Origin: an uncultured bacterium
Lineage (GTDB): Bacteria; Patescibacteriota; Minisyncoccia; Phycocordibacterales; CAIJYI01
Direction: 5' to 3'
Assembly (NCBI GenBank): GCA_903824855.1
Contig: CAIJYI010000041.1
Coordinates: 27,159 to 91,158, forward strand
Length of the DNA: 64,000 bases
The translations under genes were made by a program, and so were the position numbers. Of this stretch, positions 3,388-21,171 are shown piece by piece. The stretch's first letter is position 1; each line of letters starts with the position of its first letter. The notes under the pieces are model-generated. The model saw only the letters and a list, made by a program, of their open reading frames with translations. It made no database searches and was not told the origin of the DNA.

Positions 3388-3429
3388 CATAAAGTTCATC
3401 AAGTTATAAAGTTCATCAAGTTCATCAAG
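3386..3429 (+). repeat. Tandem 9-nt minisatellite (AAGTTCATC / AAGTTATAA units, about 4.5 copies) in the tRNA-Glu leader
   Basis: Direct reading. The same unit family recurs at 20161-20199 (inside alaS) and, as reverse complement, at 55878-55922. Confidence 0.8.
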
Positions 3430-3459: not shown

Positions 3460-3531
3460 GGCCCTATCGTCTAACGGTTAGGACGAAAGCTTCTCAAGCT
3501 TTAAATCAGAGTTCGATTCTCTGTAGGGTCA
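3460..3531 (+). tRNA. tRNA-Glu (anticodon CUC)
   Basis: Hand-folded cloverleaf. The 7-bp acceptor GGCCCTA/TAGGGTC has one G-T pair. D-stem is GTCT/GGAC. Anticodon stem AAAGC/GCTTT carries loop TTCTCAA, giving CTC. T-arm is CAGAG-TTCGATT-CTCTG, discriminator A. No CCA is encoded. Confidence 0.8.
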
Positions 3532-3555
3532 CAAAACGCAAAATAAATAAAAATT

Positions 3556-8149: not shown

Positions 8150-9202
8150 ATGAACAAACTACGAATCAAAACCGACGCAAAAATTTTAATCTGTTTTCTC
8201 TCCATTATCCTCCTTTGTTTTATACAGATGGGAGTTACCTATTTATATCAAGGTGGCGTCTTAAAAAATATCACAAATCTGGAAGGAGTGGAAAACTCAC
8301 TGCAAGTTCTTGCCATATCGAAAAATGGTGACGACCATGTACTCGATGAAACTATTTATTTTTCAATTCTTTACGCCGAGAAAGGTGATTATGAGATGGT
8401 AAATAGCTACAAATCAAAATATGATCAATTATTGGCTGAAAGTAAGATTCGTTTTGAAAAAGGAAGTATTGCCTCTCTCTTGAAACAGAGCCATAGAACG
8501 GCGAAGGATAAACAACTGACAGAGCTGTATATACAAAATATCGCTTCAGCAGAAACCGGTATGAGAGTAATTGTTACGGATGCGTGGACTGCTTTACAAA
8601 ATAAGGATATTCAAAAAGCCAATGCTTTAATCACAAGTTCAGATTATAAAAAATATCATGAGGAAATGCATCTCAATATTGATAATTGGATAGAACTGGA
8701 AACATCGAATCTTGATGTTCTCCGAAATATTGTTTTTACACAATTACAAAACTCAATTTCTTTCACTCTTGTATATTTTATTATGATGCTGGCGGTTTTG
8801 CTTTTTGTTCTTTTCGCCGTCCGAACCTTTGTTGCAGAGCGAGATAGATTTTATGAATTAATTTATAATACTTCACAAGATGCGATGATGACGCTGGAAG
8901 GGCCGGACTGGAAGTTTACATCGGGGAATCCAATGGCTTTAAGGCTATTTAATGTCAAAGACAAAAATGAATTTATGTCTCTCAGTCTCGTTGATTTATC
9001 ACCGGAGAAACAGGAAGATGGACAGCTTTCAAGTGAAAAGGCAAAGATGATGATTGAAAGAGGAATGAAAGAAGGAAGAATTTCTTTCCGCTGGTTGCAT
9101 AAAGAATTTAACGGAAATAATTTTCATGCCGATGTATTGATGAGCAGAATTGATGAAAAAGGAAAGTCATATCTGCAGGCAATCGTAAGAAAAATGGATT
9201 AG
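8150..9202 (+). CDS. Membrane sensor protein with a C-terminal PAS-like domain and no output domain
   Basis: 350 aa: N-terminal TM, extracytoplasmic segment, second TM (TLVYFIMMLAVLLFVLFAV), then a ~110-aa PAS-like fold (YNTSQDAMMTLEGPDW...RWLHKEFNGNNFHADV). No kinase or GGDEF domain is present. Confidence 0.5.
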   Translation: MNKLRIKTDAKILICFLSIILLCFIQMGVTYLYQGGVLKNITNLEGVENSLQVLAISKNGDDHVLDETIYFSILYAEKGDYEMVNSYKSKYDQLLAESKIRFEKGSIASLLKQSHRTAKDKQLTELYIQNIASAETGMRVIVTDAWTALQNKDIQKANALITSSDYKKYHEEMHLNIDNWIELETSNLDVLRNIVFTQLQNSISFTLVYFIMMLAVLLFVLFAVRTFVAERDRFYELIYNTSQDAMMTLEGPDWKFTSGNPMALRLFNVKDKNEFMSLSLVDLSPEKQEDGQLSSEKAKMMIERGMKEGRISFRWLHKEFNGNNFHADVLMSRIDEKGKSYLQAIVRKMD

Positions 9203-9258
9203 GAAATTTAGATTTTTAAAAAACCGGCGCCAAAATGTCAGTCATAAAAGTAATGTAA

Positions 9259-9771
9259 ATGACATCTTCAATAAAAAATAAATCACTTCATATTGTCTCG
9301 CTATTATTCATATCAATAATGGCACTTCCGAACATTGTGTCAGCAATGACCGTTAGCGTTGGCATACCCGATGCTTTTTCACAGGTGCAAGCGGGAAATA
9401 AGATATATTTTGAAACAGAAATTAAATGGCCGGAAAATACCGGACGTAAAGATTTACGCATCGATTATTCCATATTGGATAAAAATAAAACGGAAATAGC
9501 TCAACTAAAAGTCTTAAGAGCTATCGAGACCCAGGTTTCATTCATGGACGGAATAGCTGTTCCCGCAGATGCTTCTTCGGGTTTGTATACCGTTTTGGTG
9601 AAAATAAGTGATTACGGAACTCTTTCCAAGGAAGCATCCGTGACCTTTAATGTGACTCAAAGTGGAAATTCAACACAGACATATCTCATTGTTATTATTG
9701 GATTTTTAAGTTTTATTTCAATTTTTGTTACTTTTGAATTATTCTTCTTAATGAGAAAGAAATCATTCTGA
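9259..9771 (+). CDS. Secreted, C-terminally anchored hypothetical protein
   Basis: 170 aa. Signal peptide ends ...PNIVSA, and there is a C-terminal TM helix followed by basic residues. Confidence 0.5.
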   Translation: MTSSIKNKSLHIVSLLFISIMALPNIVSAMTVSVGIPDAFSQVQAGNKIYFETEIKWPENTGRKDLRIDYSILDKNKTEIAQLKVLRAIETQVSFMDGIAVPADASSGLYTVLVKISDYGTLSKEASVTFNVTQSGNSTQTYLIVIIGFLSFISIFVTFELFFLMRKKSF

Positions 9772-9825
9772 TGATAGATCAACGCCTCTTTTTTCTTGAA
9801 TAATAAAGGTTTTTTTGAATAAGCA

Positions 9826-9836
9826 GGGGGGGGGGG
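9826..9836. repeat. G11 homopolymeric tract in the promoter region of the (GNN)n surface-protein gene
   Basis: Direct reading (gcaGGGGGGGGGGGagaaaaag). Highly atypical in this AT-rich sequence. Sits about 25 nt upstream of a TTGACA box at 9859. Confidence 0.85.
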
Positions 9837-10032
9837 AGAAAAAGTCCTATCAAAAATGCTTGACAGGGCTATTTCATTATGCTAACGTTGCGAAAGGTCG
9901 TTTTTGAGGAGAGTCTTCAAGAATAGACTATTTGTCCTTTGAAATAATAAAGTACGTAGAAAATCTAACTGATTATTTCAGGGAATTCATGCCGTTTTGG
10001 CATATTTCTTAACTTCTAAAAGGAAGAAAAAA

Positions 10033-10776
10033 ATGAATAAGTTATTACTTGCAGTATCTGTATCTTTATTACTTGGCTCCACTGCATTCGCAGACGTAAC
10101 TACTGCTCCTACTCCAACTACGGCAACAAGTACTTTATCCGTCACAGGTTATAGTCATGCGTTTGCTGAAGCACTTGGAAATCTGACTGGTGTGCAAACT
10201 CACGATACTCTTAATTTAACCGGATCACTTTCCGGTAGTGGGAATTTTATTACCGGTCAATCAACTGGTATTGCTGATGTTCTCGGTGCCGGTCCTACTC
10301 ATTCAATTGCGGAAAGTGGCATAATAGGCAGTCTTTCTTTGAGCCTTGACCCTCACTTTATTTCCGGAACTGGCAGTAGTGAGCAATATGGTGTGTTGAG
10401 TTCTTTAGGTACCGGATCAAGTATTGTTAGTGGCAGTTTGTCATTAAGCGGTAATTTAGGATCTAACTTTGGAAGCGCAAGTGCTCTGGATGGCGCAACA
10501 AGTACTCAATTTACATCCGGTTTGCTTTCTGCTCAAGGTTTGAGCTCCGGCGATCTTTGGATTAAAACAGCACTTACCCCAGCGATAATTCCAGACCCAG
10601 GTACAGGTGGTACCGGTGGTGACAACGGTAACAACGGTAACAACGGTAACGGTGGTAACAACGGTAACGGTGGTACTGGCCAAGATTATGGAAATGGTAA
10701 TGGCGGTACAAATAATGGTCATGGTAATGGCGGCAATAACGGTAATGGCCAAGGCACAGGCGGCGGTCAACAATAA
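10033..10776 (+). CDS. Secreted Gly/Ser/Thr/Asn-rich low-complexity protein with C-terminal (G-N-N/G-N-G)n repeats
   Basis: The track start is TTG 9997. The ATG at 10033 follows AGGAAG and begins a signal peptide (MNKLLLAVSVSLLLGSTAFA). The C-terminus carries GDNGNNGNNGNGGNNGNGG and related repeats. Confidence 0.55.
   Translation: MNKLLLAVSVSLLLGSTAFADVTTAPTPTTATSTLSVTGYSHAFAEALGNLTGVQTHDTLNLTGSLSGSGNFITGQSTGIADVLGAGPTHSIAESGIIGSLSLSLDPHFISGTGSSEQYGVLSSLGTGSSIVSGSLSLSGNLGSNFGSASALDGATSTQFTSGLLSAQGLSSGDLWIKTALTPAIIPDPGTGGTGGDNGNNGNNGNGGNNGNGGTGQDYGNGNGGTNNGHGNGGNNGNGQGTGGGQQ
10600..10765 (+). repeat. In-frame tandem 6/9-nt repeats (AACGGTAAC, GGTGGT, AATGGC) encoding (GNN/GNG)n
   Basis: Direct reading of GGTGACAACGGTAACAACGGTAACAACGGTAACGGTGGTAACAACGGTAACGGTGGT... 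Confidence 0.7.
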
Positions 10777-10808
10777 GAATACCGCGTAGTTGTTCAATTA
10801 GCATTTTT

Positions 10809-10842
10809 GAGAAGGAGTTTTCCCTCCTTCTCTATTTTTTTC
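10809..10842 (+). terminator. Rho-independent terminator (GAGAAGGAG-TTTTCC-CTCCTTCTC + TATTTTTTT)
   Basis: Direct reading; lies downstream of the (GNN)n gene. Confidence 0.7.
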
Positions 10843-10901
10843 TCCCCACAGCACTAACAAATTTTGAAACCATTCTTCTCACGAAACAAAGGATATTATT
10901 A

Positions 10902-11906
10902 ATGAATCAGTTACAAAGAATTATCGCAGCAGTTTTTATCTCCGGGTGTGCAATTTCTTTTGCCGCATCCGCAGGAGATACAAACACCAATGTAGATGTC
11001 GGGAATAACGCAACAGCGCAAACTATTGGCGGAGCTCAAAATCAAACATTCCGTCAAGGTGATACTTACGTTAAAGTTTCACCCGCTGTGCCACTCCCAA
11101 ATACTGCGGCTTCACTCGCTGTCAATCCAACCACTTTTTTGAATAACGGTGCAGGCTTGGCGGAAAGGACTGCGCAATATAGTAGATTGTTTGCTCAATT
11201 TACTAAAGGTGTTGTTTCAGTCAACGGGTTAAATAGTAAACGTGGCGAAACAAAAACCACAGATACGGATTTTGCCGTCCTCGTATGGCAACCTTATTCC
11301 GATTACTATAATGGTGCGGTGAATGAAGATTTGTACGTCAAATCATTTTCGCCGATGATAACCGATATGTCTGTAGACTTTGGTGCTATGTCGCCAACAA
11401 CAAACTTTTTTGTTATCGGCCATGTCGCCGTGGTAACACCAAAAGGTTCTGATTTATCTGACGCCGTTTTGCAGGAAACATTAATCGCGGAAGCGGAAAA
11501 GTTTCTTGTAAACGAAGTTGAGATAACCGGTTTTACGGATATTACTCCAATGGTGATTTTTGAAACAACCGCATTCTATCAAGGCAGTGCCGTGACGAGT
11601 GGTGGTTATCAAATCTCTCCTCAAGTGAGCATGTTCCCCGGTGCCGGTGTTGGAACAGGCAGTTTCTTCAGCTTTCAAGATGTGAAAGGTCAATCAACTC
11701 CTGAATATCGCCTTGGTATGAAAATTGTTTTCTTAGCAAAAGCGACAAATGCAGGTGAAGGTCATGCGATAGTTGCAAAAGTGCAACAAATCAGTAAGAC
11801 TATTGCAGAAAAAGCCGCCAGCGAAAAAGCTGCAGCAGCCGAAAGGTCATCTGAAATGGCAGTTAAACATTCTGTTGACACTGCTGTAGATAAAACAGCT
11901 CAATAA
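10902..11906 (+). CDS. Secreted hypothetical protein
   Basis: 334 aa. Signal peptide MNQLQRIIAAVFISGCAISFAASA. No known domain recognised. Confidence 0.55.
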   Translation: MNQLQRIIAAVFISGCAISFAASAGDTNTNVDVGNNATAQTIGGAQNQTFRQGDTYVKVSPAVPLPNTAASLAVNPTTFLNNGAGLAERTAQYSRLFAQFTKGVVSVNGLNSKRGETKTTDTDFAVLVWQPYSDYYNGAVNEDLYVKSFSPMITDMSVDFGAMSPTTNFFVIGHVAVVTPKGSDLSDAVLQETLIAEAEKFLVNEVEITGFTDITPMVIFETTAFYQGSAVTSGGYQISPQVSMFPGAGVGTGSFFSFQDVKGQSTPEYRLGMKIVFLAKATNAGEGHAIVAKVQQISKTIAEKAASEKAAAAERSSEMAVKHSVDTAVDKTAQ

Positions 11907-11971
11907 TTTCTTCGATTTTTTACGTAAAATCAATCGCAAAAAAGCGAAAAATAGTTAGATAAGCAAAGTTC

Positions 11972-12004
11972 AAGCTCTTCATTTTTATGGAGAGCTTTTT
12001 TTAT
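11972..12004 (+). terminator. Hairpin (AAGCTCT...AGAGCTT) with a large loop and a T-run
   Basis: Direct reading. Separates the secreted-protein gene from the sigma-factor promoter. Confidence 0.4.
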
Positions 12005-12017
12005 TTGTCATTTTTCT

Positions 12018-12047
12018 CTGGCATAAAAATAGTATTCTTTGTATGAT
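12018..12047 (+). promoter_or_regulatory. Conserved promoter-like element copy A (CTGGCATAAAAATAGTATTCTTTGTATGAT), ending 6 nt before the sigma-gene ATG
   Basis: The same 30-mer recurs at 18764-18793 upstream of tsaC, and the following 10 nt also match 9/10. It contains a -10-like TATGAT and a -35-like CTGGCA with an 18-nt spacer, implying a leaderless transcript. Confidence 0.45.
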
Positions 12048-12053
12048 TAGAAA

Positions 12054-12602
12054 ATGAACGATGAGGATATCGTGAAATTAGTACAGAACGGCGATATTGA
12101 AATCTTCGGTGTTTTGATTGAACGTTACGAGGAGAAGATGCTTCGATATGCGCGAAAATTTTTATTTGGTACTGATTCTGCAACTGATCTGGTGCAGGAT
12201 GTTTTTACGAAAGCCTATATTAATATATCCGGTTTTGATACAGCGAAAAGATTTTCTCCGTGGCTTTATCGTATTGCGCATAATTGTTTCATAAATGAAT
12301 TAAAGAAAAATAAACGAGAACCCGTGCCGATGTTTGATATGGACATTTTTTTCCCGAATTATCCTCAGAATGATACGCCGGAAACAGAGGTGATTCGAAA
12401 TGAGTTAAAAAAGACACTTGGCGATTGTATTAATAATATCGATTACAAATATAAAGAAGTTCTCATCTTGTATTATTATGAAGAATTAAGTTATAAGGAG
12501 ATTTCGGATATCTTGCATATCCCCGTGGCAACCATAGGAATGAGGATTAGCCGCGGAAAGGAAGCAATGAAAAAAATTATACTTAAGGAACAAGAAATAT
12601 GA
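12054..12602 (+). CDS. ECF-family RNA polymerase sigma factor (sigma-70 regions 2 and 4)
   Basis: 182 aa. Region 2 is DLVQDVFTKAY...WLYRIAHNCFINELKK. The region 4 HTH is LSYKEISDILHIPVATIGMRISRGKEAMKK. Confidence 0.8.
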   Translation: MNDEDIVKLVQNGDIEIFGVLIERYEEKMLRYARKFLFGTDSATDLVQDVFTKAYINISGFDTAKRFSPWLYRIAHNCFINELKKNKREPVPMFDMDIFFPNYPQNDTPETEVIRNELKKTLGDCINNIDYKYKEVLILYYYEELSYKEISDILHIPVATIGMRISRGKEAMKKIILKEQEI

Positions 12603-13309
12603 GTAACTCAAAAACAAAATCGATAAAAAATTCAATATTGTATAAAATAAAAAATGGAGACATTAAGAAACTTCCAAAAGTTATTTTTAATGTAAAATCG
12701 GCTTTTTTTATTGTTGCGTTATTCCTCGTTCTGTCTTTTTCAGTTTTTGTGTTAAGTTTTATTGTTTTTTCACTTCAGATCTCCGGACTATGGAAGCTTT
12801 CATTTTTTGGAATTAAAGGATTTCAGATGTTAATTAGTAATTTACCTTGGATCATTATTCTTCTGGTCATAGGGTTTATTGTCATTTTGGAGATTATGGT
12901 AAACAGATATTCCTTCTCTTATCGAAAACCATTTCTGTATACCTCATTAATGGTAATCTGTCTAGTCGTCGTGACAAGTCTCGTTATTAGAAAAACTTCC
13001 TTTGATGAAAATTTTTATTCAAAAATTGAACAGGGAAAAATACCGGCATTTAAGCCGCTATACGAAAAGTATGTTAATCCGAGTCCTGAATACTTTCACC
13101 CCGGGACGTTGATAAAAATGGAACCCGAAGGTTTTATCCTTGAGCTTCATGATAAAAAAACTATTTTTGTGAGGATATCCGAAAAAACAGAAAAGCGAAT
13201 CGGTTTTGAAATTTATCCAGGAACTCGATTACTCGTTGTCGGTAAAATAGTGAACGAAATTATTGACGCAGAAATCATCGATAATGCGCCCTCTAGTGGG
13301 CGTCCGTAA
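12599..13309 (+). CDS. Membrane protein, putative anti-sigma factor
   Basis: 236 aa. Start overlaps the sigma-gene stop (ATGA). It has a cytoplasmic N-terminus followed by 3-4 TM helices. The anti-sigma role is inferred from synteny only. Confidence 0.4.
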   Translation: MSNSKTKSIKNSILYKIKNGDIKKLPKVIFNVKSAFFIVALFLVLSFSVFVLSFIVFSLQISGLWKLSFFGIKGFQMLISNLPWIIILLVIGFIVILEIMVNRYSFSYRKPFLYTSLMVICLVVVTSLVIRKTSFDENFYSKIEQGKIPAFKPLYEKYVNPSPEYFHPGTLIKMEPEGFILELHDKKTIFVRISEKTEKRIGFEIYPGTRLLVVGKIVNEIIDAEIIDNAPSSGRP

Positions 13310-13342
13310 TATTATTTTTTTTCAATTGTAGTAATATATAGA

Positions 13343-13366
13343 GAGCATCTGTGCTCGTTTATTATT
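13343..13366 (+). terminator. Weak hairpin (GAGCA-TCTG-TGCTC) followed by GTTTATTATTT
   Basis: Direct reading. Confidence 0.3.
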
Positions 13367-13392
13367 TATATATTTCTAAAATATAATTATTT

Positions 13393-15021
13393 ATGAAATT
13401 TTTTCTTATGAATCCGATGCGCATCGTTATTTTATTATTAACATTCGGTATAATCGCGGTGGGCGGGTTTTGGTACTCATCGGATCATAGAGCAAATTTA
13501 TCAAACTCCGATATTTCCGCCGCAACGTCAACTGATAGTGCTTCTTATATAAGACCCTCAACAGAAGCAGATAAGACAAATAATCCGCCTCCAGAGGCTG
13601 CAATTATTGCTTGTTCTGGTAAATCAATTGGCGTAGCATGTCAATTTTCAGATAATGGAAACATTGCTGTTGGTGTCTGCGACGATAACCCTGGTGTCCT
13701 CGCTTGTAGAAAAAATGATGACGCTGGCGTTGGACAAACAGCTACAGGGACAACAAAACCGACGACAGGAACTACGGGTGCATCGATAAATAGTCAACCA
13801 TCAAAAACAACAACGACAACCACTTCTACCACCACAACTAAACCTACTACCCCGCCTTCATCCGGGGGGCAGAGCAGTTACAGTATAACGCAGGCAATTT
13901 CTGATCAAGCTCAATTAAACACGCTGGCTTTTGATGGGCTCGGATTTTTAACCGGAAATACTTGCTCGGATTCATTTTTACCTCCGGGAAAAGTTGCTGA
14001 TTTTTTCGGTTTTCAATATTTGAGAGATACCACGGCGAACGGAAAAGGACATGATACTGATTTCGTAACCAACTCGGCTAATAATGTTCTGTATACTTTA
14101 ACGGCTGCACAAAAAGCGAAGATGACTGCGCTTGCGAAATCACAGAGCTCCCAAGTAAATGAATTCGCGTATAAAAGATTTCCTTTGATGGTAGCTTTTC
14201 GCCGCGAATTTACAGGAGATATTCCATCCGGAACAACTGGTTTGAGTAAAACAGCAGTAATGGACTATTCCGCGGATCTCTATGAAATTGATGCTCAGAT
14301 AAGTTTGGAGAGGGCACAATTATTTGGAGAGATTATCAGGTCACTTTCAACTGAACAGAAAGCATATTTTGATGCTATGGTGAAAGGAGGTTTTGCCTCG
14401 TGGAAGATCTTACCGGACCAGGTTGATAAGGTAAATCTTACTGTTGACCAGTCAGTGCTTATGATGACGTATGCGAGCGAAATGTTTGGTTGGTATGCGG
14501 GAAATATTGAAGCTGATACATATTTCTGCCCTGAGAGGCAGGCGGATTACTTTGGCGGATTTTATATAAAAGACGCTCCGGCTATTGGGAATGCCGGTTA
14601 TACTATCGATGAATCTATCACCGGCGACCAAGGTCAAGCTTTCTTAAATGCTTTAAGTAGTGCACAAAAACCAATCATAACAACTTTAGTTGACACACAA
14701 AGAACAGCAATCAACAGTATTGTCGAAAAAAGACGTGCTATTTCAACCGAATTGCGCAATGCCTTGTCGACAGGAACAATTGATACCGAAAAGGTAATTG
14801 CTTTGTCGAGACAATACGGGGAATTGGACGGAGAAATTTCATATTATTACGCTTCTGCCTTCTCAAAGGTCGGTAAAACTCTCACTACTGATCAAAAAGC
14901 GAATTTGGTGAAGTTAAAAAATCTTGACGGATATTCTTGCCCAAGTACTTCTGCATATCTCTATTCGGCAAAGATTACAATGCCAACAGTTGAAAGTACA
15001 GATTTTCTTTTTGCTAAATAA
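13393..15021 (+). CDS. Large membrane-anchored extracytoplasmic protein with a Cys-rich module and Thr-rich linker (hypothetical)
   Basis: 542 aa. Starts with an N-terminal TM, then a 6-Cys module (CSGKSIGVACQF...CDDNPGVLAC), a TTTTTTSTTTTKPTTPP linker and a ~380-aa C-terminal domain of unknown family. Confidence 0.55.
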   Translation: MKFFLMNPMRIVILLLTFGIIAVGGFWYSSDHRANLSNSDISAATSTDSASYIRPSTEADKTNNPPPEAAIIACSGKSIGVACQFSDNGNIAVGVCDDNPGVLACRKNDDAGVGQTATGTTKPTTGTTGASINSQPSKTTTTTTSTTTTKPTTPPSSGGQSSYSITQAISDQAQLNTLAFDGLGFLTGNTCSDSFLPPGKVADFFGFQYLRDTTANGKGHDTDFVTNSANNVLYTLTAAQKAKMTALAKSQSSQVNEFAYKRFPLMVAFRREFTGDIPSGTTGLSKTAVMDYSADLYEIDAQISLERAQLFGEIIRSLSTEQKAYFDAMVKGGFASWKILPDQVDKVNLTVDQSVLMMTYASEMFGWYAGNIEADTYFCPERQADYFGGFYIKDAPAIGNAGYTIDESITGDQGQAFLNALSSAQKPIITTLVDTQRTAINSIVEKRRAISTELRNALSTGTIDTEKVIALSRQYGELDGEISYYYASAFSKVGKTLTTDQKANLVKLKNLDGYSCPSTSAYLYSAKITMPTVESTDFLFAK

Positions 15022-15039
15022 CTATTCATTATTAATTTT

Positions 15040-15756
15040 TTGAAACATATGTATAAAGATACCGATAAAGTCGTTTTGATTACGGACAATGATGATCTTG
15101 TCGTGGAAAGCAGTGATGACAAGAATCAAACAAAAAATAAAGAAAAAATAATTATTGCCGTATTGTCTGTCGTATTTTTGATTCTTCTTTGTGGAGTCAT
15201 TTGGGATCTTTATGGAAGAAAAACCTTGACCATATATTTATGCGGAACAGAAATAGCGACAAGCACTGCTGGTTTATTGGGTACGAGTACCCCGAAAGAT
15301 CTTTCCATTGCATCACAAAATACAGCGAGTCCCGAAACTCCCCCAGCAACTCCTTCTGGTGTCAAAAAGAGCGTAGGCAATACCCCGCTAAAACCTTCAG
15401 GAAATACTACCGCGTCTATAACGAAACCGAGTAGTAGTGTCGCATACTCTTCATATGGCACCTGTATAGAAAATGCGAAAGATCTTGGTTCCAGTAAAGA
15501 TTGCTGTGATTGTTTGAGCGCTGATGTTTCCGTGAGAAAAGCATGTAGAGACTTCGCGGCGACGTATGATTTTACAAAAAATACAACAATAAAAACATTC
15601 ACTATTCCTTCGTCTCTCGGTCGAACCGGAAATTATACTGCTTACACATCAAGTGCCACACAACAAGAATGTAAGCAAAAATGTGATTCTTCTACAACTC
15701 TTCAGTGTGGCGATTTTCAATTCTGTCGGACTGCGTGCGATAGTATGACACAATAA
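15040..15756 (+). CDS. Membrane-anchored Cys-rich secreted protein (hypothetical)
   Basis: 238 aa. TM helix precedes a C-terminal domain with about 12 Cys (CCDC...CRTAC). Confidence 0.45.
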   Translation: MKHMYKDTDKVVLITDNDDLVVESSDDKNQTKNKEKIIIAVLSVVFLILLCGVIWDLYGRKTLTIYLCGTEIATSTAGLLGTSTPKDLSIASQNTASPETPPATPSGVKKSVGNTPLKPSGNTTASITKPSSSVAYSSYGTCIENAKDLGSSKDCCDCLSADVSVRKACRDFAATYDFTKNTTIKTFTIPSSLGRTGNYTAYTSSATQQECKQKCDSSTTLQCGDFQFCRTACDSMTQ

Positions 15757-15762
15757 TCAAAT

Positions 15763-16968
15763 ATGAATAAGAAGGTTTTTATTTCGCTCATTTGTGCGTT
15801 GGTTGTCGGGATTATTTCGATTTCGTATTTTTGGGTCGCAAACAGAGACAAAAAAATAATTTCTTCCGAAACATTATCGCAATCCGAACAGGTAACCAAA
15901 TCAACCTCTACCGAACAAATAGTCACGATTACCGAGCCGTCGACCGTCACCTCGCAAAATTCCGTTCAGGGAAGTTTCTCGTTTGGAATTCAGGGCGATT
16001 CTCATCCTGAAAGAGCGGGAAAAATGTTTAATGCGGATTTGTATGCAATAAACCTGCAAAATGCAAATAATGCTAATCTCGCGTTTTATTTTCTTCTCGG
16101 CGATGACTTCAGTATTGAGAAATTGATTGAGGACAAGACCTTTACTCAAGAAACTGTTGATAAAGTATATTTGCAGCAAAAAAATTATTTGAAAAATATT
16201 TCCGTGCCGATTTATTTAGTGAACGGCAACCATGAGCAAGAAGCCAAATATTTACTGGACGGTACGAATAATAATCCGGCAATTTTAGCAAAAAACGCGC
16301 GCGCAAAATTTTTTGATTCTCCCGGCGCCGAAAACGGTTACTACTCTTTCACGCATGGAGATGCTCTCTTTGTTGTTATTGATTTTTATTGGCATTCGGA
16401 CTTGGCGGCGGATAATGTTGCCGGCGCAAAGGGCGGAAGCGCGAAACGAAGCGATTTATGGAACAATACGCTCGGCGACGTCCAATATCAATGGTTTAAA
16501 AAAACACTGGAAGAAAGCAAGGCGAAATATAAATTCGTTTTCACACATCATGTTCTGGGCACAGGGCGCGGAGGAGTGGAGGAAGCAAAGTTGTATGAAT
16601 GGGGCGGATACAACTCAAAAGGCGTTTGGGAATTTGATACCAAAAGGCCGGGATGGGAATTGCCGATTCATCAGCTGATGGCGAAAAACGGTGTGACGAT
16701 ATTTTTCCAGGGACATGATCACTTATTCGCCAAACAAGAACTTGATGGAGTAATCTATCAGGAGGTTCCAAACCCTGCGGATAATACTTATACGGCATTC
16801 AACAAAGATGCCTATAAAACGGGAACCGTATTACCGAATTCCGGATATCTCAATGTGACGGTTTCGCCGACGAATGTAAAAGTTGATTATATACGAGCAT
16901 TCCTTCCAAAAGACGAAACGGCAACGAGTAAAAACGGTTCCGTAGCTTTTTCCTATACCGTTCAATAA
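15763..16968 (+). CDS. Membrane-anchored calcineurin-like metallophosphoesterase (purple-acid-phosphatase-like), paralog 1
   Basis: 401 aa. Metallophosphoesterase motifs GDSHPE...GDD...GNHE...HH...GHDH are present, after an N-terminal TM. Confidence 0.7.
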   Translation: MNKKVFISLICALVVGIISISYFWVANRDKKIISSETLSQSEQVTKSTSTEQIVTITEPSTVTSQNSVQGSFSFGIQGDSHPERAGKMFNADLYAINLQNANNANLAFYFLLGDDFSIEKLIEDKTFTQETVDKVYLQQKNYLKNISVPIYLVNGNHEQEAKYLLDGTNNNPAILAKNARAKFFDSPGAENGYYSFTHGDALFVVIDFYWHSDLAADNVAGAKGGSAKRSDLWNNTLGDVQYQWFKKTLEESKAKYKFVFTHHVLGTGRGGVEEAKLYEWGGYNSKGVWEFDTKRPGWELPIHQLMAKNGVTIFFQGHDHLFAKQELDGVIYQEVPNPADNTYTAFNKDAYKTGTVLPNSGYLNVTVSPTNVKVDYIRAFLPKDETATSKNGSVAFSYTVQ

Positions 16969-16977
16969 ATTTGAATC

Positions 16978-18129
16978 ATGAAAATCTTCAAAACATCATA
17001 CATTATTATCGCTTTGCTTATCGGAATCTGCGCTGTTTCCGTTTTTTGGGCGATGAATAAAAATACTGCGGAAGAGATTTTTCCCGAACAAGCGGCGGAA
17101 ATTTCACGGTCGACAACGACGCCAGCAGACATCAACGCGACAAGCCAATCTCCCGCCACACAGGGTGAAGCAGTGGACGCAGTGGAAGAGACCTCAAAGG
17201 AAGTCGCCGGCGGCGACGATAATTACGTTTTTGATATAGAAGCCGATCCTCATATGGATGAGCAGTCTGATTCCAAAATTTATACTCAGACCTTAAAAAA
17301 TATTGTGAGCGACAAACCGGCATTTTTGATAGACCTCGGTGATATTTTTATGGTGGATAAATTGTCTGATAAAAGCGAGGCAAATATAAAAGCGCGCTAC
17401 GACCTCATGAAAGGATATTATGACCTGCTCGGGTCCATTCCTCTCTATTTTGCGATGGGAAACCATGATGGAGAAGTTGGCTGGGATAAGCTCTATACGA
17501 AGAATTATCGTCTCCAATATTTCCCGAAAGAAACCTACGATAAAAACTATTATTCTTTTGAAAAGGAAAATGCGCTTTTTGTCGTTCTTGACCCGTACAT
17601 GTATACGACGACGAAGCCAAATGAGAACGGGTGGGACTGGACACTTGGAAAAGCGCAATATGATTGGTTGAAAAAAACACTTGAGTCGAGTAATGCAAAA
17701 TATAAATTTGTGTTCATTCACCAGCTCGTTGGCGGAGATAACCAAGGACGCGGAGGTATTGAATTTGCCAAACTCTATGAATGGGGAGGAAACAACATCG
17801 ACGGCAGTTATGGATTTACATTGAATCGTTCAGGATGGGGAACTCCGATTCATCAATTGCTGGTCGATAACAAAGTTGATGTAGTTTTTAAAGGTCACGA
17901 TCATTTTTTCGCTAAGCAAATATTGAATGGAGTGATATATCAAACAGTTCCACAGCCAAGTCATCCTGGGGCTAATATTAATACTGCGGAGGAGTATGGA
18001 TATTTAAATGGAGTAATTCTCGGAGGTTCCGGTTATTTGAGAGTGACAGTTATGGACACAAAAGCTCTGGTTGAATTTGTTAAGACAAATAGCACAAAAG
18101 ATGTTGCGGATTCATATTCTATACAATAA
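16978..18129 (+). CDS. Membrane-anchored calcineurin-like metallophosphoesterase, paralog 2
   Basis: 383 aa. Clearly paralogous to 15763-16968 (KYKFVFxHxxxGxxxGRGGxExAKLYEWGG...PIHQL...GHDHxFAKQxLxGVIYQxVPxP). Arranged as a tandem duplicate. Confidence 0.7.
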   Translation: MKIFKTSYIIIALLIGICAVSVFWAMNKNTAEEIFPEQAAEISRSTTTPADINATSQSPATQGEAVDAVEETSKEVAGGDDNYVFDIEADPHMDEQSDSKIYTQTLKNIVSDKPAFLIDLGDIFMVDKLSDKSEANIKARYDLMKGYYDLLGSIPLYFAMGNHDGEVGWDKLYTKNYRLQYFPKETYDKNYYSFEKENALFVVLDPYMYTTTKPNENGWDWTLGKAQYDWLKKTLESSNAKYKFVFIHQLVGGDNQGRGGIEFAKLYEWGGNNIDGSYGFTLNRSGWGTPIHQLLVDNKVDVVFKGHDHFFAKQILNGVIYQTVPQPSHPGANINTAEEYGYLNGVILGGSGYLRVTVMDTKALVEFVKTNSTKDVADSYSIQ

Positions 18130-18222
18130 AAAAATGTAACTTTTTCTGGTGCTGATTCCATAGTATAGATGGATACAAGATGTATTTTGTTTAAGATAAT
18201 TATTAATAATATTAAAATTACG

Positions 18223-18660
18223 ATGAAAAAAACTATCGTTTTAGGTCTTAGTGTTGCCTTATTGGCCATGTCTGGAAGTATTACTTATGCACAGATAAAA
18301 AGCGTTGGAGCAAAAGCTTTTGCAAATCAAAATGCAAGTATGAATCTTCCTTGTGTTCAGACAGCTGTTGGGGTCAGAGAAACAGCTATTCAAGCTTCAT
18401 TTACAAAATTCACGTCATCAACATTAACAGCAATGCAGACAAGAGCTACTGCACTTAATACTGCTTGGGGTATGACCGTTGGAGCAGAAAGAAGAGCTGC
18501 TCGGAAAGCTGCCTGGGATGCATATAAGTCAACCAACGATGCAGCACGAGCAACTTTTAAAACGGAAAAACAAGTAGCTTGGGATACATTCAACAAAGCT
18601 TCCGCTGTGTGTGGGGTCGAAGTTGTAGAAACACCTTCTCAAGACGGGTTGACAATATAA
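18223..18660 (+). CDS. Secreted hypothetical protein
   Basis: The track start is 18169. The ATG at 18223 begins a signal peptide (MKKTIVLGLSVALLAMSGSITYA). The rest is Ala/Thr-rich and probably helical. Confidence 0.5.
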   Translation: MKKTIVLGLSVALLAMSGSITYAQIKSVGAKAFANQNASMNLPCVQTAVGVRETAIQASFTKFTSSTLTAMQTRATALNTAWGMTVGAERRAARKAAWDAYKSTNDAARATFKTEKQVAWDTFNKASAVCGVEVVETPSQDGLTI

Positions 18661-18682
18661 AACTACACTAAGATATAAAGAC

Positions 18683-18720
18683 AAAAAATACCCTGACTAA
18701 AGCGACGGGTATTTTTTTAT
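18683..18720 (+). terminator. Terminator-like hairpin (AAAAATACCC...GGGTATTTTTTT)
   Basis: Direct reading. Confidence 0.5.
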
Positions 18721-18763
18721 ATAAAAACAATAAAAATTTTATTTTATAAAAGTACTTATCTTG

Positions 18764-18793
18764 CTGGCATAAAAATAGTATTCTTTGTATGAT
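18764..18793 (+). promoter_or_regulatory. Conserved promoter-like element copy B, identical 30-mer to 12018-12047, ending 6 nt before the tsaC ATG at 18800
   Basis: Direct comparison. Confidence 0.45.
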
Positions 18794-19386: not shown

Positions 19387-21171
19387 ATGCAATCAAATGA
19401 AATAAGGGCGAGATTTTTAACTTTTTTTGAGAAACGCGGGCATGCAATTATCCCGAGCGCTTCACTCATTCCTGAAAATGACCCTTCAGTGCTTTTCAAC
19501 ACGGCCGGAATGCAACCATTAGTGCCGTATCTTCTTGGAGAGTCACATCCGAGTGGTGCGACACGTCTCGCGAATTCACAGAAATGCGTCAGAACGGTTG
19601 ATATCGATGAGATAGGTGATAATACCCATGCGACATTTTTTGAAATGCTCGGCAACTGGTCGCTCGGAGATTATTTTAAGGAAGAGGCCATCGAATGGAG
19701 TTTTAAATTACTTACCGACAAAGAAGAAGGATTTGGACTCGATCCGAAACGACTGTATGTAACAGTTTTTGAAGGTGATGAAAATGCTCCTCGTGATGAC
19801 GAGGCTTTTGAAATCTGGAAAAAATATATTCCCGAACATCGCATTTATTTTATGGGTGCGAAGAATAACTGGTGGAGCCCCGGAGATAATGGTCCGTGCG
19901 GTCCCGATTCGGAAATGTTTTACGATGTGACGGTTGAAGGACTCGGTGACATGACGAAGGAAGAATACTTGAAAGCTGATGATGAACAAAAAATTGTTGA
20001 AATCTGGAACGATGTTTTCATGGAATATGAAAAGAAAGATGGAAAAGTAATAGGGAAGTTGTCAAAGAAAAACGTTGATACCGGATCAGGGCTAGAGCGC
20101 GTGACGATGGTCGTTCAAGGAAAAAATAATATTTATGATACCGATTTACTGCAACCGATAGTTCATCAAGTTCATAAAGTTTCTCAAGTTCGTCAAGTTA
20201 CGGACGGAAATGAACGTGTCGAGCGAATTATCGCCGACCACTTGCGCACTTCGATTTTTATGATTGCGGATGGCGTTGTTCCGTCCAATACCGATAGAGG
20301 TTACATCTTGCGACGTCTTTTACGTCGTGCGGTAAGACTTTCACATACCTTGGAACTCAGTTGCGGGCTGGAAGAACTTGTCGGTTCTGTTATTCATATT
20401 TATACTGATTCCTATCCGAATTTAGTAAAAGATGCCGTCAGAATTCAGAATGAAATAAAGAAAGAAGAAGAAAAATTCCGTCTCACACTCGTCCACGGAA
20501 TGAAAGAATTCGAAAGAATTTCAGAAGGGAAGAGTGAATTATCCGGAGCGGAAACCTTCAGTCTTTTTTCCTCGTATGGTTTTCCGATTGAGATAACAAA
20601 AGAACTTGCTTCTGAAAGAGGAATCGTCGTCGATGAAAAAGGCTTTGAAGAAGAATTCAAAAAACATAAAGAAATTTCTGCCGTCGGTTCCGAACAAAAA
20701 TTTAAAGGCGGACTGGCTGATACTTCGGAAATTTCGACGCGTTATCATACCGCCACACATCTTCTCCAAAAAGCTCTCCGTACGGTTTTAGGCGAACACG
20801 TTTTTCAGAAGGGAAGTAATATTACTGCCGAGAGAATGCGTTTTGACTTCTCTCATGGAGAAAAAATGACCGATGAACAGAAGAAAATGACGGAAGATTT
20901 GGTGAATGAAAAAATTAAGGAAGCCTTGCCGGTAATGTACGAGGATCTTCCGATTGATGAAGCCAGAAAACGCAATCCTATCGGCCTATTTGGCGATAAA
21001 TATGGCGATGTCGTTCGTGTTTATACAATAGGCGAAGGCGATAAAAAATGGAGCATTGAGCTTTGTGGAGGCCCACACGTGAAGAATACGAGTGAACTCG
21101 GTCATTTCAAAATCCTTAAAGAAGAAGCCGTGTCAGCAGGAGTCCGAAGAATAAAAGCTGTGCTTGAATAA
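19387..21171 (+). CDS. alaS: Alanyl-tRNA synthetase, short form (catalytic + tRNA-recognition + editing core; no C-Ala domain)
   Basis: 594 aa. N-terminal class II aaRS motifs are present, along with the editing-site motifs HTATHLL and CGGPHV near the C-terminus. The protein ends soon after CGGPHV. Confidence 0.9.
   Translation: MQSNEIRARFLTFFEKRGHAIIPSASLIPENDPSVLFNTAGMQPLVPYLLGESHPSGATRLANSQKCVRTVDIDEIGDNTHATFFEMLGNWSLGDYFKEEAIEWSFKLLTDKEEGFGLDPKRLYVTVFEGDENAPRDDEAFEIWKKYIPEHRIYFMGAKNNWWSPGDNGPCGPDSEMFYDVTVEGLGDMTKEEYLKADDEQKIVEIWNDVFMEYEKKDGKVIGKLSKKNVDTGSGLERVTMVVQGKNNIYDTDLLQPIVHQVHKVSQVRQVTDGNERVERIIADHLRTSIFMIADGVVPSNTDRGYILRRLLRRAVRLSHTLELSCGLEELVGSVIHIYTDSYPNLVKDAVRIQNEIKKEEEKFRLTLVHGMKEFERISEGKSELSGAETFSLFSSYGFPIEITKELASERGIVVDEKGFEEEFKKHKEISAVGSEQKFKGGLADTSEISTRYHTATHLLQKALRTVLGEHVFQKGSNITAERMRFDFSHGEKMTDEQKKMTEDLVNEKIKEALPVMYEDLPIDEARKRNPIGLFGDKYGDVVRVYTIGEGDKKWSIELCGGPHVKNTSELGHFKILKEEAVSAGVRRIKAVLE
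20161..20199 (+). repeat. In-frame tandem 9-nt repeat (GTTCATCAA / GTTCATAAA / GTTTCTCAA / GTTCGTCAA) inside alaS encoding VHQVHKVSQVRQV
   Basis: Direct reading. Same unit family as the arrays at 3386-3429 and 55878-55922. Confidence 0.7.

Follow-up and report, generated by a model that had tools for sequence, protein, structure and literature searches.

In a stretch of 64,000 nucleotides (nt) from an uncultured bacterium of the Patescibacteriota (contig CAIJYI010000041.1; hereafter the window), positions 12018-18722 hold a gene for an extracytoplasmic function (ECF) sigma factor, a gene for a partner with three transmembrane (TM) segments and a cassette of envelope proteins that includes two metallophosphoesterases (MPEs). 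We put at about even the chance that in this unit an ECF sigma/anti-sigma pair is coupled to an envelope cassette that moves horizontally, and its most likely role is that of a stress-induced, surface-anchored phosphoester-processing module. An earlier note, made by reading this DNA, had drawn the element more widely, as a single island spanning 8150-18660. All the open reading frames (ORFs) it described there are present, on the plus strand and in the order given: 11 co-oriented ORFs, all of which except the sigma factor gene encode a signal-like or anchor-like N-terminus (signal-like and TM segments of window proteins were judged by hydropathy). The features of the unit as redefined here are the following.

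12018-12053, plus strand: putative promoter of the sigma gene with its short 5' region (CTGGCA-N18-TATGAT, 6 nt, ATG)
12054-12602, plus strand: ECF (group IV) sigma factor, 182 amino acids (aa), with regions 2 and 4 only
12599-13309, plus strand: putative anti-sigma factor or signal sensor, 236 aa, with a short conserved cytoplasmic N-terminus, three TM segments (3-TM) and an extracytoplasmic C-terminal domain of ~105 aa
13306-13334, plus strand: candidate ECF-type promoter of the cassette, cGTAAT-N17-GTAGTAAT, between the anti-sigma and core genes
13393-15021, plus strand: core cassette protein, 542 aa, with a TM anchor, a 4-Cys module (aa 64-106), a Ser/Thr-rich linker and an all-helical domain of ~385 aa with four LTxxQ-like motifs
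15049-15756, plus strand: Cys-rich accessory protein with a TM anchor, a linker and a 10-Cys domain of ~100 aa (ORF from 15040, probable start 15049)
15763-16968, plus strand: MPE-A, a TM-anchored metallophosphoesterase (PF00149) with a fold like that of PhoD and purple acid phosphatases (PAPs)
16978-18129, plus strand: MPE-B, a second, anciently diverged TM-anchored metallophosphoesterase (PF00149)
18223-18660, plus strand: sp145, a lineage-specific secreted protein of 145 aa (ORF from 18169; signal-like N-terminus)
18683-18718, plus strand: terminator-like hairpin followed by a T-run (-10.4 kcal/mol, z = -4.2), the right boundary of the unit

The reach of the cassette was traced through its 542-aa core protein. 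More than 2,800 relatives were returned by a protein search, and relatives were confirmed at 426 places by a scan of one genome per species; the best 80 of these 426 are the genome loci analysed here (numbered with an L where one has to be named). ORFs were called in the 80 loci, which were then searched with every window protein, and neighbour families were formed by clustering non-overlapping ORFs. An exhaustive profile search with the core protein gave 423 clusters (50% identity) at E <= 1e-30. The 20 members that were aligned share 52-75% identity over the C-terminal domain of ~385 aa, in which over 100 positions are invariant, and they include phyla of the Candidate Phyla Radiation (CPR), Chloroflexi and the archaeon Methanofastidiosum. 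The best 80 loci extend further to DPANN archaea, methanogens, Verrucomicrobiota, Clostridia and others, and across CPR bacteria, DPANN archaea, methanogens, Verrucomicrobiota and Chloroflexi the core of the cassette keeps an identity of 45-80% and a fixed gene order. The earlier note had suggested that the phosphoesterases could be scavenging enzymes of a reduced-genome symbiont, a rationale that is weak because the cassette occurs in free-living lineages (it is found in methanogens, Verrucomicrobiota, Chloroflexi and Clostridia).

MPE-A and/or MPE-B adjoin the core gene in 33 of the 80 loci. Of the loci with both enzymes, 15 run core, (Cys-rich), A, B and a single one has the reverse arrangement; the Cys-rich protein holds the same position in 18 loci. 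The gaps within the cassette of the window are 6-27 nt. By these comparisons it is the cassette at 13393-18129 that forms the conserved unit, and the 10-kb island does not. An arrangement of sigma, 3-TM, core, (Cys-rich or PEBP), MPE, MPE recurs in six independent lineages (the window, L086/87, L088/89, L090, L091 and L040), and the sigma orthologues in these sigma-type loci are 56-63% identical. Over the 80 loci as a whole the window sigma factor gave weak generic matches only, in six. The closest relatives of the cassette (72-73% identity) have an OmpR-type response regulator and a histidine kinase directly upstream, and methanogen loci recurrently have an ArsR-like regulator with a small membrane protein. 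A regulator gene stands immediately beside the core gene in every architecture, and two-component systems were the commonest family among 150 sampled neighbours. This pattern suggests that the sigma/3-TM pair was joined to the cassette in one clade, at the slot that a two-component system holds in sister lineages.

The product of 12054-12602 is unambiguously an ECF sigma factor by its profile scores, as had been proposed: Sigma70_r2 matched at 58.1 bits, r4_2 at 51.3 bits and TIGR02937 at 102.8 bits (cut-off 42.9). The nearest named models are SigW, SigM and RpoE. The factor nevertheless fell below both SigW equivalog cut-offs, with 134.5 vs 209 bits for NF007223 and 125.3 vs 243 bits for TIGR02948.

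The start of the partner gene and the end of the sigma gene share 4 nt (ATGA), in line with the translational coupling suggested earlier. About 33 residues precede the first TM segment, and the single Cys lies within the third. Only three homologues were found in a protein search (46-52% identity), and in all three the order is sigma, 3-TM, core, (PEBP), MPE and, in part, a second MPE, as far as the contigs reach. A metagenome scan with an alignment of the partner found 21 loci, and a sigma orthologue lay directly 5' in 19 of the 19 with upstream sequence, among which partner identity ranged from 25 to 50%. We regard the sigma/3-TM pair as real because of this unbroken association. The partner does not have the features of class I or zinc-binding anti-sigma factors, namely a cytoplasmic domain of ~90 aa, often with HxxxCxxC. 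The more distant pairs (25-36% identity) precede other envelope cargo: downstream of those in L095, L099, L111 and L107 are HlyD, an ABC ATPase and a MacB/FtsX-type permease (MacAB-type efflux), or a Na/Ca exchanger. The pair thus seems to be a portable envelope-stress regulator with varied cargoes.

A second link between the pair and the cassette is a promoter-like motif. The intergenic regions between the 3-TM and core genes are otherwise dissimilar; what they share is a bipartite motif, tGTAAT(AAA)-N-TTGTAkTAAT, with a fixed 17-nt spacing, found at the identical position in the window, L086/87, L088/89, L090, L091 and L040, that is, in all six sigma-type lineages. Two of these, L040 (the sequence of which opens with the last residues of a 3-TM homologue, NAPPEGRP*) and L091, had been left out of the motif definition and carry it all the same. 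When 2.6 Mb were scanned on both strands with the pattern GT[AT]A[TG]-N17-GTA[GT][TA][AT]A, ten matches were obtained. Seven were upstream of a core gene in sigma-type loci (the window, L086/87, L088/89, L090 and L040), two were upstream of the sigma gene in L086/87 and one was a stray; over all scanned loci there were two stray matches, of which this is one. No match fell in loci of the two-component type within the 2.6 Mb. The window itself has a single match, at 13306-13334, even when one mismatch is allowed.

Specificity is held by the bipartite, fixed-spacing motif only: the short element TTGTAKTAAT alone was marginal in the window (three matches vs 0.6 expected), and a looser version was not enriched. 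The motif does not read as a housekeeping promoter, as the key -11 A or -7 T is absent. It resembles the TGAAAC/TGTAAC-N16/17-CGTA class of promoters that SigW- and SigX-type factors use. We propose that this motif is the promoter from which the sigma factor would transcribe the cassette. A small inverted repeat (GAGCATCTGTGCTC, 13343-13356) follows closely after the candidate -10 element; its folding energy is not unusual (z = -1.6), and it would lie at the 5' end of a cassette transcript.

The sigma gene itself is preceded by a different sequence. An exact 30-nt direct repeat, CTGGCATAAAAATAGTATTCTTTGTATGAT, occurs at 12018-12047 and 18764-18793, each copy 36 nt upstream of an ATG, that of the sigma gene (12054) and that of tsaC (18800). 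These are the only two copies in the window, with none expected by chance. They lie 6746 nt apart and bracket the whole sigma-cassette unit, and similarity of 76% extends over 89 nt. The repeat could reflect a promoter duplication or gene conversion tied to insertion of the unit, or it could be a shared regulatory site. Two other interpretations of this stretch were rejected. Derivation of the first 17 codons of the sigma gene from tsaC, raised by the 89-nt repeat, was dropped since the N-terminus aligns with sigma orthologues elsewhere, and CTGGCA was set aside as a sigma-54 element since the -12 element does not fit.

The four genes upstream of the sigma gene, with their terminators, are as follows.

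8150-9202, plus strand: PAS350, 350 aa, with two TM segments and a C-terminal PAS-like region (aa 230-347)
9259-9771, plus strand: sp170, with an N-terminal hydrophobic signal-like segment
10033-10776, plus strand: sp247, with an N-terminal hydrophobic signal-like segment
10809-10832, plus strand: strong intrinsic terminator after sp247
10902-11906, plus strand: sp334, 334 aa, with an N-terminal hydrophobic signal-like segment
11972-11997, plus strand: intrinsic terminator after sp334, an 11-bp stem followed by a T-run (-14.4 kcal/mol, z = -5.6), the left boundary of the unit

That the whole of 8150-18660 is one co-regulated envelope or host-interaction island under the ECF sigma factor, as the earlier note had it, fits the co-orientation of the genes, the secreted or anchored nature of their products and a gene order that is identical across many metagenome samples of the same species. 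PAS350, sp170, sp247 and sp334, however, had no homologues among ~100 loci with the cassette or the sigma pair (the 80 cassette loci and the nearest relatives included), and a metagenome scan with sp334 found no relative. Strong terminators follow sp247 and sp334, and the only candidate sigma-type motif in the window stands before the cassette and not before any upstream gene. Because homologues are missing from related loci and terminators precede the sigma gene, the four upstream genes are excluded from the unit; their membership is not supported. Synteny and terminators together largely refute the single island, which we consider highly improbable. In the downstream half, recurrent order and the motif link the sigma pair to the cassette.

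Within the upstream group, the PAS assignment of 8150-9202 is plausible, with matches to three PAS models that are all below cut-off (PAS_9, 20.4 vs 27 bits; PAS_8, 19.2 vs 21.8; TIGR00229, 17.3 vs 22.9). No kinase domain was found in PAS350, which agrees with its description as a sensor that lacks an output domain, and the three proteins described as having signal peptides do have signal-like N-terminal segments. The probable true start of sp247 is 10033. A tract in this gene (10600-10675) has a 9-nt periodicity (GGTAACAAC-like) and encodes a Gly/Asn-rich tail; within the species the length of the protein varies, some samples having 247 aa and another 253 aa. Samples also differ in the length of the neighbouring beta-helix protein, which has either 1081 or 1074 aa. 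These differences in length suggest strain-variable surface proteins. Neither the beta-helix protein nor sp145 was found in any of the 80 cassette loci. For sp145 the start is probably 18223, and a secreted product was correctly anticipated; the transcription unit probably ends with this gene.

Among the cassette products, the core protein has one TM segment and seven Cys. The N-terminal module, previously counted as having six, has four (C74, C83, C96 and C105), and the other three lie in the conserved domain. The Cys-rich protein has one TM segment and 12 Cys, as had been said, ten of them in the C-terminal ~100 aa. Each MPE matched PF00149 at ~40 bits (cut-off 21.5), and the DxH, GD, GNH(E/D), H and GHDH motifs are intact in both and invariant in the family alignment. 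In the MPE-A family, the invariant motif II reads GDDFS (G113-D114-D115-F116-S117). With MPE-A as the query, phmmer returned no PDB match, and a profile search gave only marginal purple acid phosphatase matches (E = 0.026). MPE homologues from outside the CPR carry the PAP N-terminal domain PF16656, in the place of which CPR members have a TM anchor and linker. The two enzymes are tandem TM-anchored paralogues, as had been recognised; the duplication is not a local one. Because MPE-A and MPE-B are 36% identical to each other and 59-80% identical to their own orthologues (~59% for MPE-B), we read them as two ancient orthologous groups that travel together. In L021, L026, L027, L031 and L043 (Verrucomicrobiota and Phycisphaerae), an MPE-A-type domain sits within giant proteins (ORFs of 3.6-9.4 kb) that adjoin the core gene.

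Fusions connect these proteins further. The Cys-rich and core domains are fused in the homologue P0117 (41% identity, E = 7e-27). In another homologue the core domain is fused to PEBP, a domain that binds phospho-ligands and is a separate gene elsewhere (E = 6e-61). The 4-Cys module is found also on PEBP proteins and other neighbours, and some homologues have the cell-wall anchors PG_binding_1 or SLH. The fusions, common modules and anchors point to a multi-protein assembly that would lie at the cell surface. A defence system was considered as well and dropped, as PADLOC anti-phage models matched none of the ten proteins searched.

The enzymes might alternatively serve Pho-type scavenging under phosphate starvation, freeing phosphate from dissolved organic phosphorus while the upstream regulators sense limitation. 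Their closest fold is that of PhoD, a phosphate-starvation enzyme (PMC4223295). The response regulator of related loci scores 179 bits with PhoB, and the source habitats are stratified freshwater lakes, to judge from contig and sample names. That regulator nevertheless scores higher with heavy-metal regulators (214 bits), one histidine kinase matches best with BaeS, and the ECF sigma and ArsR-type regulators of other lineages would be atypical Pho inputs. The proteins are tethered by TM, SLH or peptidoglycan-binding anchors and not released, the PhoD Pfam match is below cut-off with its Tyr ligand missing, and pst and phoU genes were absent from the 150 sampled neighbours. We therefore regard the Pho-type explanation as doubtful.

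For the core protein a sensory role has to be weighed. The match to Pfam LTXXQ (PF07813) is at 39.0 bits (cut-off 24.3). Its domain was predicted to be all-helical (pLDDT 79.7, pTM 0.83), with two invariant loops, FLPPGKVADFFGFQYLRD and CPERQxDYFGGFYIKDAPAIGNAGY. Neither Pfam nor NCBIfam has a dedicated model for the 385-aa domain, and a sequence-profile search of its alignment against the PDB gave nothing at E <= 1. The core could be an extracytoplasmic stress or metal sensor-chaperone like CpxP, Spy, ZraP or CnrX that feeds back on the adjacent signalling protein (anti-sigma factor or histidine kinase), with the MPEs as one of several cargoes. Besides the LTXXQ score, this is favoured by a weak Metal_resist (CnrX) match in a homologue, by the position of the core gene immediately beside a regulator and by the metal or envelope-stress type of those regulators (heavy-metal response regulator, BaeS, ArsR); MPE genes are missing from about half of the loci of the core family, and distant homologues of the sigma pair drive MacAB-type efflux genes instead. 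The LTXXQ match spans only ~90 of the 385 residues, however (best stretch aa 236-328), identities of 45-79% between bacteria and archaea are unusual for chaperone-like helical proteins, and the fixed order with two equally conserved enzymes, together with the PEBP and Cys-rich fusions, points to a dedicated multi-protein machine. On balance we find a sensor-chaperone with incidental enzymes rather improbable.

For the sigma-controlled phosphoester-processing cassette, we infer the following course of events. In the resting state, the short conserved cytoplasmic N-terminus of the 3-TM protein would keep the sigma factor at the membrane. Release would follow when the outer C-terminal domain of the partner senses an extracytoplasmic cue, which the LTxxQ-type core protein may relay. 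Free sigma would then transcribe the cassette from the conserved promoter at 13306-13334 (tGTAAT-N17-GTAkTAA), and four membrane-anchored surface proteins would be made: the helical core, the Cys-rich accessory protein and two non-identical dinuclear metallophosphoesterases. Jointly these may hydrolyse a phosphoester at or near the cell surface, for which envelope polymers, phospholipid head groups and an extracellular organophosphate are candidates. A bolder version, unlikely in our estimation, is that the 385-aa helical protein (which would be a new fold) forms with MPE-A and MPE-B, and with Cys-rich or PEBP accessory domains, a hitherto unrecognised heteromeric phosphoesterase machine, anchored at the surface and passed as a unit between bacteria and archaea. 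Its helical subunit would act doubly, in substrate or metal handling and in relaying the extracytoplasmic signal to the regulator present upstream, be it an anti-sigma factor, a histidine kinase or an ArsR-type protein.

Several observations weigh against the sigma-controlled cassette as we have drawn it. The partner matches no known anti-sigma domain in Pfam or NCBIfam and has no zinc motif. The sigma gene's own upstream promoter fits the bipartite motif poorly and is instead an exact copy of the tsaC promoter, and for this reason autoregulation of sigma in the window is doubtful. No solved structure resembles the core domain, which makes any role for it a guess, and its most conserved loops are modelled at low confidence. 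An MPE lies within 6 kb in 23 of the 47 loci whose downstream sequence extends for 4 kb or more; because about half of the adequately flanked loci have no adjacent MPE genes, the core protein can evidently act without them. The absence of pst and phoU phosphate-transport genes from the sampled neighbours (0 of 150) counts here as well.

Other genes around the cassette were recorded. In two CPR lineages, a divergent set on the minus strand upstream of the cassette (L086, 6240-9309; L085, 542-3565) comprises an ArsR-family regulator, a glutaredoxin and a second ECF sigma factor with a small partner; in L086 it also holds a YgaP-like membrane protein. Peroxiredoxin and thioredoxin-reductase-like genes are found near the cassette in methanogens. 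These neighbours hint at a context of thiol, redox or metal(loid) stress. In the window, the region is flanked by housekeeping genes, with PBP2, a Mur ligase and tRNA-Glu upstream and TsaC (probable start 18800) and AlaRS downstream. The AlaRS (19387-21171) is just 594 aa long, with catalytic and SAD domains and the long C-terminal part absent, and Shine-Dalgarno-like sequences are missing upstream of most genes in the region; both are compatible with a reduced, CPR-type genome. A perfect tandem 17-mer (ATAAAGTTCATCAAGTT x2) is at 3389-3422, just upstream of tRNA-Glu (3460-3532).

As the earlier note had expected, no specific family model or paper was found for the cassette, and literature searches for LTXXQ with metallophosphoesterases and for ECF sigma factors in Patescibacteria returned nothing relevant. 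The sigma factor and both phosphoesterases belong to known superfamilies, of which they are new members; the cassette, its spread across domains and its interchangeable regulators appear to be undescribed. A vague island is replaced by a defined, testable unit, in which a candidate promoter and a cargo of four genes accompany the sigma factor and its partner, and that cargo is an uncharacterised family of exceptional conservation across bacteria and archaea. One cassette under three kinds of regulator is a natural example of regulatory-module swapping, and the swapping offers a handle on signal and substrate in anoxic freshwater microbes, including unculturable CPR and DPANN.

The window pair is most readily compared with the SigW-RsiW, SigM and SigX modules of Bacillus. 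Like them it has a small sigma factor with regions 2 and 4 only (SigW is the best-scoring named model), a membrane partner directly after it and a downstream cargo of envelope proteins. The candidate promoter (tGTAAT-N17-tGTAk) resembles the promoters TGAAAC-N16-CGTA and TGTAAC-N17-CGAC of the Bacillus-type ECF sigma class. Unlike SigW, the window sigma factor is below the equivalog cut-off (134 vs 209 bits), and unlike the Bacillus anti-sigma factors its partner has three TM segments, ~33 cytoplasmic residues and neither a zinc-binding domain nor a Pfam or NCBIfam match.

A second parallel is CnrYXH, in which the ECF sigma factor CnrH is accompanied by the short anti-sigma factor CnrY and the periplasmic LTXXQ-like metal sensor CnrX. 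We take its gene logic, on the strength of the Pfam matches, to be that of the window: a sigma factor, a short-tailed membrane anti-sigma factor and an extracytoplasmic helical LTxxQ protein. CpxP, Spy and ZraP are targets and modulators of their two-component systems, and the core family likewise adjoins two-component systems in relatives. In size the core domain exceeds CnrX or Spy about fourfold; unlike CnrX, the window core protein has no Metal_resist match, and it has no structural match. Unlike CnrYXH and the CpxP-type systems, the core gene is followed by two phosphoesterases.

The enzymes themselves are like PhoD and the purple acid phosphatases in being extracytoplasmic and in overall fold, and homologues outside the CPR share PF16656 with them. 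PhoD and purple acid phosphatases require a tyrosinate ligand to Fe3+ (GDxxY; PMC4223295). In the window MPEs this defining ligand is absent, motif II being the invariant GDDFS, and motif I is DxH, as in generic MPEs. Their scores with the PhoD model PF09423 are 21.6 and 16.3 bits, against a cut-off of 27. Unlike PhoD and the purple acid phosphatases, they occur as an obligatory pair of diverged paralogues.

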